Below are positions 8,968 through 54,324 of a stretch of DNA of 64,000 bases, piece by piece. The translations under genes and the position numbers were made by a program. The DNA is from Octopus vulgaris. Its lineage: Eukaryota. The stretch spans positions 8,432,001 through 8,496,000 of the forward strand of contig OX597817.1 of the NCBI GenBank assembly GCA_951406725.2. The letters are read 5' to 3'. The notes under the pieces were generated by a model. That model did not search any database, had not been told where the DNA came from, and was given only the letters and a program-made list of their open reading frames with translations. Each line of letters begins with the position of its first letter. The first letter of the stretch is position 1.

Positions 8968-9048
8968 TCCCGGGTTGATACGGGGTTAACCACAGTAAGT
9001 AAGGTACTCAATACATAGCAGAGTAAAATTAATTTATTATATAGAAGG

Positions 9049-9099
9049 AGCTTCTACAGGACTAGTACTGTTTCATTCAAGAGAAATCTTCAGGAAGCT
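9049..9099 (-). ncRNA. Type I hammerhead ribozyme motif (left arm)
   Basis: Minus strand reads agcttc-CTGAAGA-tttctcttgaat-GAAA-cagtactagtcctg-TA-gaagct. Confidence 0.8.
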
Positions 9100-9312
9100 A
9101 TTTAACAAGAATTGTATTAGCATTTATACATTTAGAGGAGTGGTGGTGGGGGACTTTTGGGGTAGCATAGCGCAAAATATCATACTTGGGGGAGTGGTCA
9201 AGGTAATACTTGACCACTCCCCCAAGTATGATATTTTGCGCTATGCCTACCCCCAAAAGTCCCCACCACCACTCCTCTAAATGTATAAATGCTAATACAA
9301 TTCTTGTTAAAT

Positions 9313-9363
9313 AGCTTCCTGAAGATTTCTCTTGAATGAAACAGTACTAGTCCTGTAGAAGCT
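9313..9363 (+). ncRNA. Type I hammerhead ribozyme motif (right arm)
   Basis: Stem I agcttc/gaagct; core CTGAAGA (9319-9325) and GAAA (9338-9341); weak stem II ttc/gaa; near-palindromic stem III cagtactagtcctg; GUA cleavage triplet. Confidence 0.8.
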
Positions 9364-9373
9364 CCTTCTATAT

Positions 9374-9447
<74 letters not shown>

Positions 9448-19928: not shown

Positions 19929-20503
19929 TAAGGCGGCGAGCTGGCAGAAAGGTAAGCACACCGGGCGAAATGCGTAACCGTATTTCGTCTGCCGTTACGT
20001 TCTGAGTTCAAATTCCGCCGAGGTCGACTTTGCCTTTCATCCTTTCGGGATCGATGTAATCGACTTAATCCGTTTGTTTGTCCTTGCTTGTCCTCTCTGT
20101 ATTTAGCTCCTTGTGGGTAATAAAGAAATAGGTATTTCGTCTGCCGTTACGTTCTGAGTTCAAATTCCACCGAGGTCGACTTTGCCTTTCATCCTTTCGG
20201 GGTCGATTAAATAAGTACCAGTTACGCACTGGGATCGATATAATCGACTTAATCCGTTTGTCTGTCCTTGTTTGTCCTCTCTGTGTTTAGCCCCTTGTGG
20301 GTAGTAAAGAAATAGAAATAGGTATTTTGTCTGCCGTTACGTTCTGAGTTCAAATTCCGCCGAGGTCGACTTTGCCTTTCATCCTTTCGGGGTCGATAAA
20401 TTAAGTACCAGTTGCGTACTGAGATCGATGTAATCGACTTAATCCATTTGTCTGTTCTTGTTTGTCCCCTCTATGTCTAGCCCCTTGTGGGCTAATAAAG
20501 AAA
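19929..20503 (+). mobile_element. SINE family B, tandem trimer
   Basis: One head (ggcggcgagctggcagaa) followed by three units containing gagttcaaattcc and gactttgcctttcatcctttcggg (resembles a MetaSINE-type central domain). Confidence 0.88.
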
Positions 20504-21294
20504 TTATATAATAAGTACATACAATTTATGCTCAGGTCAAATTTGTGCCCAAACTCATGCCCGTAGTTAAGGGGGTGCAACTGGACAGCACTATCCCTTC
20601 ACTATTCAATGATGTACTCACAGATTTAGAAAAAACAGTTTACAAAAATCTTGCCGCAATACAATTTAGTGCCCACCAGAATATTCTAAAGAATCCCCGT
20701 GCAACAAAATCTGGCGACGGGCCTGCTCATTTTCCAGCTTAAAATATCGGGTATGATGCTTGCCTACTTGGAGATTAATTGTAAGCAAGGTATTGAACGA
20801 GGTGATATAGATGAAAGCGGAAATAAAAGCATAAACAGGCAGTCAACATGTATCAAGTTTGTTTATATCATATCTATATTTATATAAACTTATATAACAT
20901 ACTGAAGACACATGCAAATATGCAAATATACGTAAAGGAATACACATACACACACACGCACACACACACATATTTAGGGGTAGTTTATCCACGAGAAGAA
21001 CATTTGATAACCTGTTCTTGAGTCTTGATCATATTTCTCTGAATAAACGTAAATGTGTGCCACAGTGGATAATTATTCTCTGCTGAAAATACCGGAAACG
21101 TTGAACGTTAACAAATGTTTCATTGATTCGTTTTGCCCCGAGTTCATCAGTATTGCCAACAGAGATAACATATCTCTGAAGTTTCAGTATTCCGTCTGCC
21201 GTTACGTTTTGTGTTCAAATTCCACCGAGGTCGTCTTCTCCTTTTATCCTCTCAGGTTCAATAAAATAAGTACCAGTTGAACACCAGGGTCGAT

Positions 21295-36249: not shown

Positions 36250-37277
36250 TTTTATGGATGCAGTGATATCCATCCGGTTTTCGCTATTTAAATTAGCTTT
36301 TCAAGGGGCATTTTGAAGTAATCAATTCTTGTGACAAAGGGGTCTTGCCATTTTGGATTCTTGAAAAATAAGAATGAAACTAGAGAGTGGACTAAGGGAG
36401 GCAACAGGTGGCGGGGGGGGGGGGGGCAACTAACCCTGAGTATAATTTTTGAAGTGGTCAAGTTTGTATATTAAGGTATGGTCTATCCTTTTGTATTTAC
36501 AGGTTTTTCTTGTTTAGGCGTTCTTGTAAGGAGATTGAATCTTTGCATTGGTATAATGGAAAAATATGGAAATTCGGCGTTTTATTCCTCGCGCATCTGT
36601 CGATATGTTCGCTCAGGGTTATCTGCCTGTATAGAGGAAAACGAATCTGTTCTTTATGCAGCGTTTGGCCCACATAATTGTGGCCTCAACCTGAGCAGGT
36701 TAGGACAGAGATAAGGTTCTGAGAAACACACGTGAATTTGGTCTTAATTGAGAATTCTTCTCCTTGCTGGAATGTGAATTCTGAGCCTTCAGTTAAGTAT
36801 GGGCATGTACCCCAATTAGGTCGTCTGCATTTTTTAATTGTTGGTATCGTATGTATTGAGTATAGTTTTGAATTTGTTCGGAGTCTCTTGAACGATTTGT
36901 GTTGTCTTTTGCATTTGAGGAGTTTATGCCTATTTACGATGTTGTTCTTTTTCGGGTCTTGAGTGAGCAGAGGGAGATTTTGCATAATTATGTTGTATGC
37001 TTCATTGTTTCTGGAGTTGTGGGTTGATACGTATGGGAGTGATTTAAAGTGAGGTGTGGTGTTTTGTCTTGTTGTCCTTAGTGTGTTTGTGTCCAATTTC
37101 TTGGCACGTTCAATTTCATGGTCTATAAGTGTGGGTGGGTATTGACGTTCAATGAGTATTATTTTGAGGTCTTATAGGGAAAGTTCCCGAGTGGTTGTGT
37201 TAGATACAATTGTACAGATTCTTTTAGCTAGATTGTACGGGATAGTTATTTTTGGTGTGATTAGGATGAACTGAAAA

Positions 37278-38591: not shown

Positions 38592-39467
38592 AGATAATAA
38601 ATCGGATTTTAATATAAATCTTTTACTTTATGAGGCAGCTGGAACGAGTGTACACAAAGGTCATATGTACTCTAATTCAGTTATAAGCTGTTGGCTTTTA
38701 GAATTGTACACTCTGATCTAAGTACTAGGAGTTGTCCCTGACATGTGTTCAGTATTATATACATCCATCGTTCTACGTCTTAGATTGATATATTCCATAT
38801 TCTATGCACAACAGACATTTTGTTTCGTTCTTAAGTAGCAAGTCGCGATGTCGTCTGCAGTGTCTCGGTTTGTCTGGCGTCAAGCAATTATTTACTAGAC
38901 CAACAGAGAATGCTAACGGCAATAGACTGGAATCATGTTCAGGGAGAAACCGTTCATCAACTCGCTTTACGTCATGAAACTGTTGCTATGCAACAAACAG
39001 TTCTCCAATTCTCTCATAAGGCGTAGTTGACATTTGCAATCAGCTACTTTCTTCTATCATATATGGACATTTATCTTGGCCGAATTCCATCTCCTTATTT
39101 TGAGTGAATGTAAAAGTAGAAGTAATTAGACCAAATTGATTCTAAATATCAAAAATGTTATTAATACCAATGCTCGAGTCTATTAACTATGGAGTTATTA
39201 ACTGCAGTTTTACATGCAGTACTTTCATGTTTAGCCAAATATATTTCCTTTAATACTTGTTAATGCTTCTTAGCATAAAGGATACTCTCTCGAATAAGCA
39301 ATACAAAATGCAAGTTATTCATTTACGTGCTGATATTCACACACACGCACACACATACATACACACATTAAGAATGTTTCGTGTTCTGTATTCGTAGTGG
39401 CATTTCACCATGCGTTCAATAATCAATATTGCTTTCCTCATATAGTATTTTGCGTTTGGAATGAGTT

Positions 39468-39515
39468 CTCATCGCTGATGATGGGTTACTACTCAGAAAC
39501 CCGGGTCTGTGTGTA
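39468..39515 (+). ncRNA. Minimal type I hammerhead ribozyme (copy 1, 5' strand of stem I damaged by deletion)
   Basis: CTGATGA(39475-39481)-tgggt-tact-actca-GAAA-cccggg-TC(39507). Confidence 0.75.
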
Positions 39516-39807
39516 TCACGTAGGGCTAGAGATGGGAACGATGATTTCCCTTCGCAAATACTAATCAGACACTGACAGTGTGTCGTTAGACAGCTGGAGG
39601 AGATGTCTTCTTGGGGGGGGTCTATAAACAACAGTAGCATCGTCCCCTATGGGTCCGCCACATTTAGGTAGCAAATATACTTCAAGATTCCGTGCTGCTA
39701 CTGTTTACTTCTCGCTCAGAGATTTATTATTGTTTTTTTTCTCCCTTTTCGAGATCAGCGTCAGTTTGTCACTGGAACAAGCATAGAGTATTTTGCGTTT
39801 GTTATGA

Positions 39808-39902
39808 GTTCCCATCGCTAATAGGTGATTGTTATACGCTGATGACGAGTTACTACTCAGAAACCCGGGTCTGTGTGTATCACGTAAGGCTTAAGATGGG
39901 AA
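39808..39902 (+). ncRNA. Minimal type I hammerhead ribozyme (copy 2) with extended stem I
   Basis: tatacg-CTGATGA(39839-39845)-c-gagt-tact-actc-a-GAAA-cccggg-TC(39871)-tgtgtg. Stem I extensions gtgat/atcac and ttcccatc/gatgggaa. Confidence 0.85.
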
Positions 39903-40821
39903 TGTATGTATGTATGTATGCATGCATGTATGTTTGTTTGTATGTATGTATGTTTGTATGTATGTATGTATGTATGTATGTATGTATGTATGTATGTATG
40001 TATGTATGTATGTATGTATGTATGTATGTATGTATGTATGTATGTATGTATGTATGTATGTATGTGTGTGTGTATGTATGTATGTATGTATGTATGTATG
40101 TATGTATGTATGTATGTATGTATGTATGTATGTATGTATGTATGTATGTATGTATGCATGCATGCATGCATGCATGCATGCATGCATGCATGCATGCATG
40201 TATGTATGTATGTATGTATGTATGTATGTATGTATGTATGTATGCATGCATGCATGCATGCATGTATGTATGTATGTATGTATGTATGTATGTATGTATG
40301 TATGTATGCATGCATGCATGCATGCATGCATGCATGCATGTATGTATGTATGTATGTATGTATGTATGTATGTATGTATGTATGTATGTATGTATGTATG
40401 TATGTATGTATGCATGTATGTATGTATGTTTGTATGTATGTATGTATGTATGTATGTATGTATGTATGTATGTATGTATGCATGCATGCATGCATGCATG
40501 TATGTATGTATGTATGTATGTATGTATGTATGTATGTATGTATGTATGTATGTATGTATGTATGTATGTATGTATGTATGTATGCATGCATGCATGCATG
40601 CATGCATGTATGTATGTATGTATGTATGTATGTATGTATGTATGTATGTATGTATGTATGTATGCATGCATGCATGCATGCATGTATGTATGTATGTATG
40701 TATGTATGTATGTATGTATGTATGTATGTATGTATGTATGTATGTATGTATGTATGTATGTATGTATGTATGTATGTATGTATGTATGTATGTATGTATG
40801 TATGTTTGTATGTATGTATGT
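39903..40821. repeat. ~920-bp (TATG)n array with interspersed (CATG)n blocks
   Basis: Visible array. Confidence 0.97.
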
Positions 40822-40849
40822 AGAGTACTGTTTTTGTATATCTTACCCT

Positions 40850-43438
40850 CATGGAACAGTACATTATATATATATGGATTTCAACCTCCCTTATGACGAA
40901 TGGATTGAGGGCTGCCTCCTCTCAGGTATGCCATTGCGCGGCCTGAGGCTTGCAGAATCTCTACTTGACCTCACTAACATACTTTTATGGAGCAAATAGT
41001 GCTCCACCCAACAAGGAGGGAAATGTTCTAGACCTCTGCTTCACAAACAGCACGGCGCTCTCCCATAATGTTAAGGTGACACCGACGATTTTTATTGAAC
41101 CATAACTTTATAGAACTAACAATGTATGATCCATAGAGTACTACAGACATGCAGGCTACTAGAAGCATCCAACTTCTCTCCAGCTTGAATTTCCACAAGC
41201 TGATTGGAAAGGTATCGGGAAAGAGGTCATGGAACAAAACTGGTTTTCCAGTCTCTCTACGAAAGATATTGACATAAAACTACAACATTCTATGACAATC
41301 ATGCGTGACGTGTGGAGTAAGTTTGCTCCGGAGAGAATGCCAAGATAGCAGAAAGATATAATACCCGGGGATAGGAGGATTTTAATGAGACGACGAGCAA
41401 AAATCTCAAATCGTCTAAATGGGCCACTAAAGGATAAAAAAAAAACCCCAAGCATTGCTCGAGATCGAAAATGAACTCAAACATTTCCATGAAAAGGAGA
41501 GAGCAGAAAAGGAAGCCAGGGCTATCAAAAATATTAAAGCAAACTTTAAAGCCTTCTATAGATATGCAAAAGAGTCTACTTCAGTACGGTACAAAAAAAG
41601 GCCACCATTCGAAGAAAATGGCTTGCCGACTGCAGACCTCCCAGAGGATCAGTGAAATACTGAATGCGCAATACAAGAGTGTTTTCACAACTCCATTGGG
41701 ACACTTGTACGTAGCTATGCCTGATGAGTTCATTGGCTCCACAGCTCTACACAACGGAATGGCAATTATTGACAGCATCAAAATAGAAGAAACTGATGTG
41801 ATATCAGCCATTGGTGAAATGGGCTCAAACTCTGCCATAGGCTCTGATGGATTCCCAGCAATCATCCTAAAGAAATGCAAGGGGGCTCTAGAAAGAGCAC
41901 TTCAAATTCTCTTCCAGGACTTCCTCACAACTGGGAGACCACGAAAAGTTAAAGGAAGGCATAATATACCCTATTCATAAGGGAGGTAGCAGAACAGATG
42001 CTAACAATTAAAGACTTGTCTCTCAAACCTCCAATGTCAGCAAATTTATGGGGCACATTGTCAAGAAGAAACTAATTGCGTTCCTTGAATATAATGACTT
42101 GCTTCCTGACACCCAGCATGGCTTTCACCCAGGAAGAAGCTGCCTTACACAGCTTTTGCAGCTCTATGGCGGCGTATTGAAACAATTAATGAACCGCTCA
42201 AACCTGGATGCGGTATATCTCGACTTAGCAAAGGTCTTTGATAAGGTTGATCATGGGATGATAACTCACAAACTACGGTAATTCGGCATAACTGGGAGTT
42301 GTTGCATGACTTCGTAAAAGACAAAAGTCAGGCGGTAGCAGCCAGCGGAGCCCTCTCCAAGGAGACGGTAATAGAAAGTGGAGTGCCTCAGGGAACTGTA
42401 TTGGAGCCGCTGCAGTTCATGGTGACTCTTCCAGACATGCCATCAGTTACACAAACTGCAACACTTACTAGCTATACCGACGACACAAAAGCTGTGCCAG
42501 CAGTCAAGGAATCTGCTAATGCTAATCTTTTACAGAGAGACCCAAATGCCATATATAAATGGGCTGAGGACAACAACATGTAATTTAATGCAGACGAATC
42601 CCTAGCACTTCGCTACCAGCTAACTGAGGCTCAGAAGTCACGACAACGATACTTTGGAACGAAAGGAGCGGCAATCCCAGAATCACAAACGGTACGTGAT
42701 CTTGGGATTGATACGAGCAACGGTGCCTCGTTTCAAATGCATATCACCAAGATGGTGCTAGTGTGCAGGCGAATGGCCAGATAGATTCTAAGAACCTTCA
42801 GAACAAGGGACCAGAAAAGTATGCTGGTGCTATGCAGGACATTTGTCCTCAGCCGTCTGGACTACTGCACTCAACTACAGTGTCGGATTAATAGTGGAAC
42901 TTGAGGCGGTTCGGCGATGTTACACGAAGGAGATTTCATCAAAGGAATAGCTGAGCTAATGGGAGGGACTGAAATAGCTACTTCCCGAAGCGAAGACGGG
43001 AGGCTATGCAGTGATATGTGTGTGGAAGATACTGGAAGGGCTGGCACCAAACTTTGGAATCAAGGGTTATACCAAACCTCGAATTGGATGTCACTGCACT
43101 GTTCCAAAGTTCCCACATTTCTAATCTAAGTTGAGAACCATGTACTGCAATAGCTTGGGATTCAATGGCCCGCAGCTGTTTCACGCCTTGCCAAAACATC
43201 TGAGGGATCTTTATGCAGTGGAGGTAGATGTTTTCAAGAACCACCTCGAACCCTTGCTATCCAAGATCCCAGACGAACCAATATCAAGGCAGGAAACTCA
43301 GAAGAGAGCGGCAGTATCGAACTCCCTCCTCCAACAAAAGCCAATCCTAGAGGACAGGCCAATAAAAGGTGATTACACTGCGGGTGCCCCAGCATGGCCA
43401 CAACCTTAGGCCTGAAACATATAAAAGAATAAAGGAAT
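40850..43438 (+). pseudogene. Decayed CR1-group LINE ORF2 (end of AP endonuclease, RT, 3' end)
   Basis: Fragments [81 protein letters not shown]...NSLL. Many stops and frameshifts. Confidence 0.9.
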
Positions 43439-44062: not shown

Positions 44063-45240
44063 ACTTAGAATAACTTAGAAAGGTTTTTGGCCAGTATTGG
44101 CCCAGGCCATGTCTAACTTAATAGCACCACCTGGCGAAGTCTTTCAGTTCAGGATTTGGGCACCAAGGCCCATTCGAGCAGAGAGTTATTGTTTGCGGAG
44201 ACATATCCGGGTGTGGATGGTTTGTCCGGTACTGTTTGAAGGAATTTGTCCAAAGACTTCTTGAATTTTGTGTGGTCAGTTTCTTTTTTGACGTGTCCTG
44301 GTGTAATGTTGAAGAGAGCGGGTCCAATTGAGGTGAAATAGTTGTGCCGTATTGTCGTTATGTGATGCGATTTAGATTTTTGTTGTGGACGGATGGCACG
44401 TGGTCCAAGCCTTGGATGCATTTTGAAGGTGATGCCAACATCATTCGGACAGTGCTGATGGAATATTTTCCACATCATACAGATAATGTAGCGTTCACGG
44501 CGTCGTTGGAGTGAATACAATTTCAGCTTCTCTAGTCTACCCCAGTAGTCAAGGTCTGACATGCCATCTATCTTTTTTGTGATTGACCTTTGGGGAGCTT
44601 CAATTCTCATAATATTTTGTTTTGTGTAGGGAGACCACAGTGGACAGCAGTATTCAAGGTGGGGTCGGGCAAAAGTGGAGAAGAGAAGGATAATAGCGTG
44701 GGAATCTCTCGACTGGAAGGTTCTGAGAATCCAGGAACACATTCTGCGGGCCATGTCAACTTTGCTGCTTATATGTGTAGCCCAGCTTATGTTGTTGTCC
44801 ACTGTTACTCCCAGGTCTCTGATGTTGTTGGATGCCATGAGAATTTCTCCAGAAGGAAGAGAGTATGGGAGTTTCAGAGCGTCCTCTCTTCCAAAGTGGA
44901 TCAGTTCGAATTTGTCTTCATTTAGCAACATGTTATTTTTCCGCCCATTGGACAACAGCCAGTAGGTCTGACTGAAGGTTTATTCGGTCATCCACGCCAT
45001 TGATGACCTTCTGGAGCTTGGAATCATCAGCGAAGGTTCTGATGTTGCTGTGTTTGATGGTGTCAGTAATATCATTTATGTAGATGATGAAGAGAAGTGG
45101 GCCCAACACAGTGCCTTGTGGGACACCACTGCTGACTTTGGCTGGGCTGGATTTGACTCCTTCGACTACAACATGTTGGGTTCTGTTACAGAGGAAGCAC
45201 TTGATCCATTGCAGCAGAGCACTTGATCCATTGCAGCAGC
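44061..45240 (-). pseudogene. 5'-truncated CR1-group LINE, RT C-terminal half and 3' end (young)
   Basis: [52 protein letters not shown]. One frameshift near 44945; 3' tail (ttctaagtta)2; flanked by (TA)n on both sides; ~22-bp duplication at the 5' junction. Confidence 0.92.
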
Positions 45241-45295
45241 ATGCACATATATATATATCCATGCACATATATATATATATATATATATATCCATG

Positions 45296-45394
<99 letters not shown>

Positions 45395-45472
45395 GTGCAT
45401 ATATATACATGTAGATATATATATATGTGTGCATATATATACATGTATATATATATATATGTATATATATAC

Positions 45473-45516
<44 letters not shown>

Positions 45517-46459
45517 GAGATAAAACCACTATTAGGCAAATCACACAGTGAAAATCATAAGCCAATACATAGAAATAAAATTAATTAAAAAAATATATAA
45601 AAATATAAAATATAAAATATAAAAATCCAATTAAAATATTTAAATTAAAGTTAAAATTAAAAAAATTATTTAAATTAATAATTTAAACTTATAGATTATA
45701 AATATATATATATTTTTATTATTATCTTATTTAATTATTTATTTTCTAATTTTATTTATATTTTTTATTTTTTATTTTTTACGTATATATATATATACAT
45801 ACACACACTCACACACACACATAAAGAACGATTTATTCGCAGAGTTGTTCGAAATCTGAGGTACTACTGTACATACACATATACATACATACATACATAC
45901 ATACATACATACATACACACACATACATACATACATACATACATACATACATACATACATACATACATACATACATACATACATACGCACACATATGTAC
46001 ACCCACTCGAGCTTTTAAATAAAAGCATATGTTCATACATTTGTACTTTAACGTGACACAGTAATCAAAGACACACTAAACAGCAGGATTGTCTCAGCCA
46101 ATTGGTTAGTTGGTCTGTTGTTTTAGCTCGTGGCTAAAACCAGAACATATATTCATATATTTTAGGAAGCGTTTGTGTTGATACAGATAATATTTCTACT
46201 AAATGTCTCTGTGTCCAAATACGTGGACATTATTGTGAAACATGGTGCAAAGGTAACAGTTTGCTAAGCATATGTGCAACGTTTTTCAAGACCTCTCTGT
46301 AGTGGTTTTTGGTTCCTTTCCGTTGTTTACACGCAAATATAATTATATATGCAGTGTTGATCGCGCAACTCAGATGTATTTGTCTGAGAAGTTTTCCAGT
46401 AAGGCTTGGGGACTGACCATTGCCTCTTTTACTGTGATCCTCCAGCGTATTACTTTACT

Positions 46460-51164: not shown

Positions 51165-51850
51165 TTTTATTCTTTTACTTGTTTCAGTCATTTGACCGCG
51201 GCCATGCTGGAGCAGCGCCGTCGAACAATTCAACTTTGTAAGCCTAGTACTTAGTCTATCAGTCACCAAGTTATGGGGACGTAAATACACAAATATCAGT
51301 TGTCAAGCGATGGTGGTTGGACAAATTCAGACACACAAATACATATATATATATATATATACGGCGGGCTTCTTTCAGTTTCCGTCTACCAGATCTACTC
51401 ACAAGGCTTTGGTCGGCCCGAGGCTATAGGAGAGGACACCTACCCAAATTGTCACGCAGTAGGATTAAACCCGGAACCAGAGGGGACAAATAAGGACAGA
51501 CAAAGGGATTAAGTTGATTATATCGATCCTAGTGCGTAACTGGTACTTATTTAATCGATCCCGAAAGGATGAAAGGCAAAGTCGACCCTGGCGGAATTTG
51601 AACACAGAACGTAACGGCAGACGAAATACCTATTTCTTTACTACCCATAAGGTGCTAAACATAGAGTGGACAAACAAGGACTGACAAAGGGATTAAGTCG
51701 ATTACATCGAGGTCAGTGCGTAACTGGTATTTAATTTATCGACCCCGAAAAGATGAAAGGCAAAGTCGACCTGGGCGGAATTTGAACTCACAACGTAACG
51801 GCAGACGAAACTCTGCTAAGTATTTCGCCCGGCGTGCTAACGTTTCTGCC
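51165..51850 (-). mobile_element. SINE family A fragment abutting a family B dimer
   Basis: 51165-51478 is family A reverse complement; 51479-51850 is two family B units. Confidence 0.78.
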
Positions 51851-53721: not shown

Positions 53722-54324
53722 TTATTTCTTTAATGCCCACAAGTGGCTAAACATAGAAGGGACAAAAAAGGACAGACAAACGGATTAAGTCGATTACATC
53801 GACCCCAGTGCGTAACTGGTACTTAATTTATCGACCCCGAAAGGATGAAAGTCAAAGTCGACCTCGGCGGAATTTGAACTCAGAACGTAGCAGCAGATGA
53901 AATACCTATTTCTTTACTACCCACAAGAGGCTAAACACAGAGAGGACAAACAAGGACAGACAAAGGGATTAAGTCGATTATATCGACGCCAGTGCGTAAC
54001 TGGTACTTATTTAATCGACCCCGAAAGGATGAAAGGCAAAGTCGACCTCGGCGGAATTTGAACTCAGAACATAGCGGCAGATGAAATACGTATTTCTTTA
54101 CTACCCACAAGGGGCTAAACACAGAGGGTACAAATAAGGACAGACAAATGGATTAAGTCGATTATATCGACCCCAGTACGTAACTGGTACTTAATTTATC
54201 GACCCCGAAAGGATGAAAGGCAAAGTCGACCTCGGCGGAATTTGAACTCAGAACGTAATGGCAGACGAAATACGGCTACGCGTTTCGCCCGGCGTACTAA
54301 CGATTCTGCCAGCTCGCCGCCTTC
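53722..54324 (-). mobile_element. SINE family B tandem trimer
   Basis: Three ~185-bp units, with a single complete head at the 54324 end. Confidence 0.88.

Follow-up and report, generated by a model that had tools for sequence, protein, structure and literature searches.

What kind of element leaves two hammerhead ribozyme cores 364 nt apart in an octopus genome, and by what machinery was it placed there? The question is raised by a short non-coding feature in the window, that is, the whole 64,000-nucleotide stretch of Octopus vulgaris DNA analyzed here (GCA_951406725.2, contig OX597817.1, positions 8,432,001 to 8,496,000 of the forward strand), which belongs to the 2.8-Gb, 227-contig assembly that served as the target of our genome-wide searches. 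An earlier note, made from the letters alone, had read the feature as a retrozyme- or viroid-like unit copied from a circular RNA. Our data lean slightly toward the view that it is a decayed copy of a non-LTR retrozyme, for which a Penelope-like element (PLE) likely supplied the insertion machinery in trans, the template probably being a circular RNA. We are highly confident that PLEs mobilized this non-autonomous hammerhead element; that the template was a circle, given such mobilization, is marginally better than an even call.

The copy in the window

Both cores (CTGATGA...GAAA-CCCGGG-TC) were found 364 nt apart (Table 1), as the earlier note had claimed; the eight complementary words it had quoted are all in place, and stem II does differ between the two hammerheads. 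No credible open reading frame is present, again as described, the only candidates being frames of 76 and 83 codons and frames entering the adjoining microsatellite. The claim of two hammerheads holds for the cores, whereas hammerhead 1 is incomplete. In the output of the repeat finder, a 66-nt repeat recurs at a spacing of 364 and a 41-nt repeat, lying upstream, at 343, and therefore 21 nt were deleted just upstream of the first core, with the loss of helix I. When the cores were constrained during folding, helix I formed at hammerhead 2 and was absent at hammerhead 1. Because of this deletion, the window locus is unlikely to release the 364-nt monomer that two cuts had been expected to yield: judged from the geometry of single and double hammerheads (PMC4209133 and established knowledge), either conformation would leave one site without helix I. 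Two consecutive complete hammerheads, the definition of an active copy given by Li et al., are likewise absent from the window copy and present at other loci, in the sister family described below.

With full helices I and II, the motif is of the canonical type and not the minimal hammerhead proposed earlier. Hammerhead 2 has a C.A mismatch at 10.1-11.1 and a helix III of 2 bp with a palindromic loop. The Rfam hammerhead models, suggested as a check, gave no match at gathering score in the window and none at E≤10 over 39400-39910; in five family loci, they gave a single weak Hammerhead_1 match, which fell outside the units. The copy spans unit positions 275 to 31, and its 3′ end at position 31 is atypical, lying off the standard family ends. 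No target-site duplication was found for it (the longest common word is 4 nt), and it does not resume beyond the (ATGT)n microsatellite, which was probably either the insertion target or a later expansion. The window copy is an ordinary dead insertion, decayed and about 1.3 units long.

A rod closing on the ribozyme in the circular form had also been predicted. The fold of the window copy proved no better than that of shuffled sequences (linear z, -0.80, with 21 of 100 shuffles as good; circular z, -1.27, with 18 of 200). Most of the nested pairs hold in the circular ensemble, namely gatgggaac/gttcccatc (P, 1.0), cgcaaa/tttgcg (0.63), atact/agtat (0.77), and aacagtagca/tgctactgtt (0.79), whereas cagtg/cactg does not (0.0). 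The ribozyme-proximal half is indeed rod-like, whereas the distal half is branched and the whole is not significant in this copy. What is conserved is an extended helix I, which forms equally well in a linear precursor.

Table 1. Parts of the window copy and the adjoining repeat (positions in the window)
Feature	Position	Strand	Description
Truncated first unit	39439..39507	+	Last quarter of the unit, 5′-truncated, with a 21-nt deletion that took the 5′ strand of helix I
Hammerhead 1	39475..39507	+	Core and helix II present, helix III palindromic (CCCGGG), no helix I; nominal cut after 39507
Full unit, cut site to cut site	39508..39871	+	364 nt; 92.7% identity to the family majority, 31 differing positions
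Long stem, 5′ arm	39508..39563	+	3′ strand of helix I and its extension; partner is 39782-39838 or the arm upstream of hammerhead 1
Distal helix	39630..39705	+	39630-39639 with 39696-39705; spans the short family end
44-nt tail	39689..39732	+	Between the two fixed family ends (short, after 39688; long, after 39732)
Long stem, 3′ arm	39782..39838	+	Includes the 5′ strand of helix I of hammerhead 2
Hammerhead 2	39839..39871	+	Complete type I motif; predicted cut after 39871
Start of a further unit	39872..39902	+	First 31 nt (3′ strand of helix I), with which the copy ends
(ATGT)n microsatellite	39902..40822	+	920 bp, abuts the 3′ end of the copy

Family A and its fold

A genome DNA search for the unit, hereafter family A, gave 3608 first-look candidates, 40 of them scored, and 92 matches. 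The exact 33-nt core pattern matched 25 times genome-wide and a degenerate pattern 525 times, against 0 for the reversed control of each; therefore, the window feature is not a product of chance. These further copies had been anticipated, as had the assignment of the unit to a large family of the non-LTR retrozyme type whose helix III likely works as a dimer. The features by which retrozymes are recognized were found together in the unit: a type I hammerhead in each (recognized by pattern, alignment, and pair counts), a head-to-tail arrangement with a unit length inside the range of about 150-450 nt, the lack of coding sequence, and a GC content under 50%. Across 28 full monomers, unit length ranges from 334 to 364 nt (with up to 1.8 units per segment), mean identity to the majority sequence is 89.6%, and divergence is twofold at CpG. 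Judged from its sequences, family A is an old, decaying expansion.

The majority sequence (GC, 45%) folds as a circle at -123.9 kcal/mol, compared with -90.9 ± 5.3 for its shuffles (z, -6.2; 0/100), and the stable self-paired circular fold of a retrozyme is therefore a property of the family majority but not of the window copy (z, -1.3). Among single copies, z is below -2 in 17 of 28 (median, -2.3), and its correlation with identity to the majority is not significant (rho, -0.27; p, 0.16). The conserved element of the fold is a stem of about 55 nt that pairs positions 2-56 with 273-326 and prolongs helix I; since a linear precursor can form the same stem across a hammerhead, its presence does not prove that the RNA is circular. 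The far half is branched (63% paired).

The size of the unit, its hammerhead, and its half-rod fold are also what would be expected of an endogenized viroid-like RNA that replicated from RNA to RNA and was captured by chance. We consider this origin extremely improbable and do not retain the viroid-like label of the earlier note: the hammerhead pattern occurs on only one strand in the region of the feature, the far half is branched as noted above, and few RNA reads were recovered, while the DNA copies number in the hundreds, with fixed PLE-type ends and copy-specific decay that is higher at CpG.

Maintenance of the ribozyme

Base pairs were counted in 42 of 56 non-redundant hammerhead-centered segments from several subfamilies, the 14 with a truncated or broken arm being excluded (by an earlier filter, 22 of 79 hammerhead segments had failed 60% arm identity). 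Pairing is retained in 86.5% of the cells, and 66 cells are changed on both sides, compared with 35.1 ± 4.8 in shuffles, a count that is inflated by the relatedness of the 42 segments. Such compensatory changes (e.g., A-U 16/G-C 12, G-C 18/C-G 8, U-A 22/C-G 9, and G-C 18/A-U 9) are located in helix I, the flanking arms, and the palindromic helix III, and they are a few subfamily-level events. The covariation proposed as a check is seen in the double-change cells, whereas the number of covarying pairs (16, in a structure derived from the same sequences) is not above that in shuffles, 109 of 500 of which reach it. From these sequence comparisons, the ribozyme appears to be under selection and is predicted to cut itself.

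By eye, among the 100 matches listed of the 525, the commonest helix III hexamers were CTGCAG (13), CCCGGG (12), CTCGAG (12), and CTCGGG (12); a script count at 30 of those loci gave 10/31 perfect palindromes and 19/31 that are self-complementary when G-U pairs are allowed. The 8-bp helix III dimer duplex of the window version has a computed energy of -14.9 kcal/mol. For a single hammerhead, constrained folding gave the active conformation an energy about 10 kcal/mol higher than that of an alternative in which the core is hidden. Position 10.1-11.1, a G-C pair in canonical hammerheads (PMC4209133), is unpaired in 30 of the 42 family-A hammerheads, and cleavage may therefore be weak.

A sister family with the same tail

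A second 360-nt repeat, first seen in locus L005:560-1163 and present also in L076, L104, L111-L124, and L155-L204, forms a sister family with 64% identity to family A over the whole length (score, 238 vs 48 ± 12). Despite this limited likeness, the tail is common to both families; a 22-nt tail word, also present in the sister family, has 554 exact matches in the genome. The sister fold (z, -3.3) has the same proximal stem topology in different letters, together with a canonical helix II. Joint RNAalifold of the two families recovered weak, fragmentary structure only, and of the 105 pairs in the family-A fold, only 47 are matched by one close by in the sister fold; therefore, we claim only the ribozyme-proximal stem as common to both.

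The sister family is the younger of the two; its arms reach 5.7 units, and the largest of its two-armed inserts contains 7.5 units that are nearly identical. Its helix III is CCGG or CTAG. At core positions 3/8, a count by eye over the 100 matches listed of 129 gave U:A in 55, C:G in 24, C.A in 21, and U.G in 0. U3-A8 is a known core variant of the hammerhead (PMC4209133). The C3.A8 subfamily has also been amplified, and a damaged core can therefore still spread.

A separate tandem array at L175:580-1500 (G000:C3:14808933-14809464) consists of family-A-like 249-nt units; about 110 nt, the tail among them, are missing from the internal units, and the last unit has the tail.

Insertion ends carry a PLE footprint

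Insertion ends were mapped in 87 segments from 50 distinct loci, chosen by unit similarity or core pattern. The 3′ end is fixed in 68 of the 87 segments, falling at unit position 172-183 in 32 and at 218-240 in 36, that is, about 181 and about 225 nt past the cut site and 44 nt apart (after 39688 and 39732 in the window). The 5′ ends of family A are scattered, with 7/87 near the cut site, which is about the expectation for an even spread; in the sister family, 3/36 lie within 8 nt of it. Two inverted arms pointing outward were present at 42 of 83 loci, 26 of them with both ends fixed and 16 with at least one end elsewhere, and one short end was combined with one long end in 23 of the 26 (p, 4e-5). 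In the sister family, 17 of 19 multi-unit loci, which were chosen by us, are two-armed, with one of each end in 17/17. Fixed ends have a microsatellite at a distance of no more than 40 nt in 69 of 102 cases (background, 15%).

These patterns have a precedent in PLEs, for which partial tandems, an inverted 5′-truncated copy, and a tail at one end are reported as marks (PMC8557442; the marks, including the bias toward microsatellites, appear also in PMC3846280). Purified PLE protein was found to nick both strands of AT-rich DNA and to start at two internal RNA sites, the spacing of which corresponds to the PLE-specific tail (PMC11167929). Given the two fixed 3′ ends, the scattered 5′ ends, and this priming precedent, the true ends of the element are therefore set by priming sites and not by the ribozyme, and we infer that the fixed ends bounding the 44-nt tail are reverse-transcription start sites. 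Hallmarks of PLE-type insertion were thus found, namely two fixed 3′ ends with a tail at one of them, partial tandems with an inverted 5′-truncated copy, and AT-rich or microsatellite targets. The Penelope-like mobilization suspected in the earlier note is thus directly supported by the insertion ends of the family.

Penelope-like elements of the octopus genome

At least two young PLE groups are present in the genome. The first (L106-L110) comprises many near-identical 753-codon frames that match RVT_1 and, weakly, GIY-YIG and that contain a C-x4-C-x2-C linker; its sequence suggests the Neptune/Nematis type (clade label from PMC8557442). The second (L230-L231), likewise with many near-identical frames, has 717 codons per frame and forms head-to-tail arrays of 2.59 kb. 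A protein search with a PLE protein from this genome gave named relatives in molluscs and their symbiont bins only, with no cephalopod among the names. No homology to the unit or its tail was detected in 51 PLE loci (25 of the Neptune type and 26 of the second group). A BLAST comparison with the 26 second-group loci gave one match, in L220, where a two-armed insert of its own lies some 1 kb away from the frame. A short resemblance, containing CTCAGAG, between the tail and the hammerhead region of the second group was set aside as chance-level and was not reported by BLAST.

The PLE remnant that the earlier note had placed about 2 kb from the unit is of the RT-EN type and lies on the minus strand (36272-37171, RT-thumb/linker/GIY-YIG; RT-EN part, 36686-37171), with 13,999 first-look candidates in the genome. 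It belongs to the first, 753-codon group and has no sequence in common with the unit; its hammerhead-like motif, near 36304-36273, is a different one, of a minimal U3:A8 type. It is a neighbor of the unit and not its parent, and its proximity is no evidence of mobilization. PLE fragments in L012, L127, and L141 were likewise rejected as parents, being separate insertions; the fragments near copies are set off by microsatellites or other repeats.

That the copies are 5′-truncated ends (pseudo-LTRs) of an autonomous PLE yet to be found, rather than an independent element, would accord with the facts that most PLE insertions are 5′-truncated and that PLE pseudo-LTRs carry hammerheads, and many frog retrozymes match pseudo-LTRs (bioRxiv 10.64898/2026.07.22.740005). 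Arms longer than one unit run into another unit copy and never into an open reading frame (family A, up to 1.8 units; sister family, up to 5.7), no RT plus GIY-YIG frame lies within the unit or is continuous with it, and, as described above, the nearby fragments are separate insertions and the loci of both PLE groups gave no match. We therefore regard this alternative as very unlikely and retain that of a non-autonomous element inserted by PLEs in trans.

Other repeats were also noted in the window. A head-to-head inverted repeat of about 190 nt at 9000-9390, with a hammerhead-like core in each arm (9060-9093, -, and 9319-9352, +) and a (TA)n run after it, resembles one end of a further PLE family. 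Three related tandem arrays with a 184-190-bp unit (20047-20504, 51479-51810, and 53723-54274) are presumably SINE-like, and broken LINE-type reverse-transcriptase frames occupy 41431-43409 (+) and 44149-45580 (-).

Circular or linear template

A fuller model, to which we give somewhat less than an even chance, is that of a superfamily of 360-nt ribozyme-made RNA circles that parasitize PLEs, are recognized by their conserved 44-nt tail, and supply each insertion with two rolling-circle cDNAs, one per target strand, from two fixed sites. A more-than-unit transcript would be made, two hammerheads would pair via the palindromic helix III and excise an RNA of one unit, a host RtcB-type ligase would close this RNA, and an alternative core-hiding fold might keep the circle from being cut again. 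The RT-endonuclease of a PLE would nick both strands of an AT-rich microsatellite, and cDNA would be primed at the two fixed sites, one on each strand. Each cDNA would pass the ribozyme site for a random length, leaving partial or multiple tandems in opposite orientations.

Circular templates are favored by the length of the arms, which reach 5.7 units, with both arms of one insert able to exceed one unit, and by the free passage of cDNA through a cut site that is kept by selection. Among 23,522 cells compared between units of the same insert, 114 alleles are singletons and 14 are shared. The energy gap of about 10 kcal/mol between the active fold of a single hammerhead and the core-hiding one also speaks for a circle. 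In coral, mussel, and axolotl, retrozymes are reported to accumulate as circles (PMC7229834).

The template may instead have been an uncut linear transcript of more than one unit, with tandems derived from multimeric source loci or template jumps and with a hammerhead that processes or regulates the RNA; we find this possible and rather doubtful. In the reconstituted PLE PAc, the hammerhead is dispensable, in that its mutants insert normally, and unprocessed, uncut RNA is the main template (PMC11167929). Hammerhead-less PLEs (Naiad) still form tandem and inverted inserts (PMC8557442). The amplification of the C3.A8 sister subfamily points the same way, as do the lack of cut ends among the RNA reads and the failure of the private-allele tests, in which alleles taken as signs of copying from a single monomer turned out to occur elsewhere too (23 matches, 7 of them in the array; 14 matches, 8 in the array). 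Under linear copying, arrays that are truncated at random from the 5′ end should shrink in each round, yet inserts reach 7.5 near-identical units. Moreover, the upkeep of the ribozyme by compensatory changes implies cutting, and a cut template needs to be re-joined before it can be copied across the site.

RNA reads were drawn from three RNA-seq runs, with 6% of each read (11.5-12.9 million records), and their source organism is possibly another species. Family-like reads numbered 380, 364, and 190 at 80% likeness, in both orientations, and 2, 2, and 0 at a likeness of at least 95%. No pile-up of ends and no cut ends were found in these three runs, for which library selection is not on record. 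Some reads contain strand-switch joints resembling two-armed inserts. A joint that goes back 336 is an ordinary tandem junction that is present in DNA too. The reads show that family-like sequence is present in RNA at a low level, and they say nothing on circles.

Comparison with known systems

Non-LTR retrozymes and their PLE connection were known already, and our verdict is that the family is a new non-LTR retrozyme family. No description of family A or of a cephalopod retrozyme was found in the literature searched, although Repbase, Dfam, or the supplement of PMC7229834 may list it; a squid genome paper only gives a count of 235 Rfam hammerheads. The worth of the family lies in its clear PLE footprint and its natural ribozyme variants. 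According to a 2020 review (PMC7761336), animal retrozymes have no conserved motif that names their mobilizing retrotransposon; the family gives evidence of a different kind, in that a non-coding hammerhead repeat bears the two-start-site footprint of PLE reverse transcription and its tail has been preserved between families that are only 64% alike. With RNAs this small, the choice of PLE proteins between circles and uncut precursors can be tested, and the purpose of the hammerhead becomes testable as well, given natural C3:G8, U3:A8, and C3.A8 subfamilies that have all spread. If the rolling-circle model is true, the link between PLEs and retrozymes would be proven directly from a genome, and the family would offer a ready natural substrate on which the copying of circular RNA by a PLE reverse transcriptase could be demonstrated.

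The metazoan non-LTR retrozymes described by Cervera and de la Peña in 2020 (PMC7229834), with units of 350-390 bp in mussel and 330/350 bp in axolotl, resemble the family in that each unit, about 360 nt long, contains a single type I hammerhead and no open reading frame, and also in low GC content, self-paired fold, thousands of candidate copies, and coexistence with PLEs. Helix III, with 1-2 bp and a palindromic loop, resembles HHR_Amex2 in family A and HHR_Amex1 in the sister family. Unlike those retrozymes as reported, the octopus units occur mostly as dispersed inserts of one or two units with inverted arms rather than in long arrays, their ends are fixed 180 and 225 nt past the cut, family A has C.A or U-A in place of G10.1-C11.1, and the ribozyme is here a predicted one. 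The vertebrate retrozymes of Li, Clavereau, and Pollet (bioRxiv 10.64898/2026.07.22.740005), whose sample as given in the preprint is without a mollusc, are also PLE-dependent, with dispersed monomers and most tested copies inactive. Their PLE link consists of co-occurrence and pseudo-LTR homology, whereas ours consists of the insertion footprint, with no pseudo-LTR homology found in the 51 loci.

The EN+ PLEs (Poseidon PAc, PMC11167929; Neptune, Naiad, and Hydra, PMC8557442 and PMC3846280) share with the family two start sites, a tail at one end, partial tandems, an inverted 5′-truncated copy, AT-rich or microsatellite targets, and a hammerhead in the repeat. Unlike them, the unit is without an RT-EN frame, and its tail measures 44 nt versus the 30-40 bp reported (PMC8557442). 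In contrast to the minimal hammerhead of PLEs, that of the family has a full, bulged helix I. The PLE hammerhead variants analyzed by Cervera and de la Peña in 2014 (PMC4209133) have in common with it the palindromic helix III, the dimer model, and the U3-A8 variant, and a circle yielding more-than-unit cDNA was already proposed there. In that account the variants belong to PLEs, whereas here U3:A8, C3:G8, and C3.A8 are subfamilies of one non-coding element.
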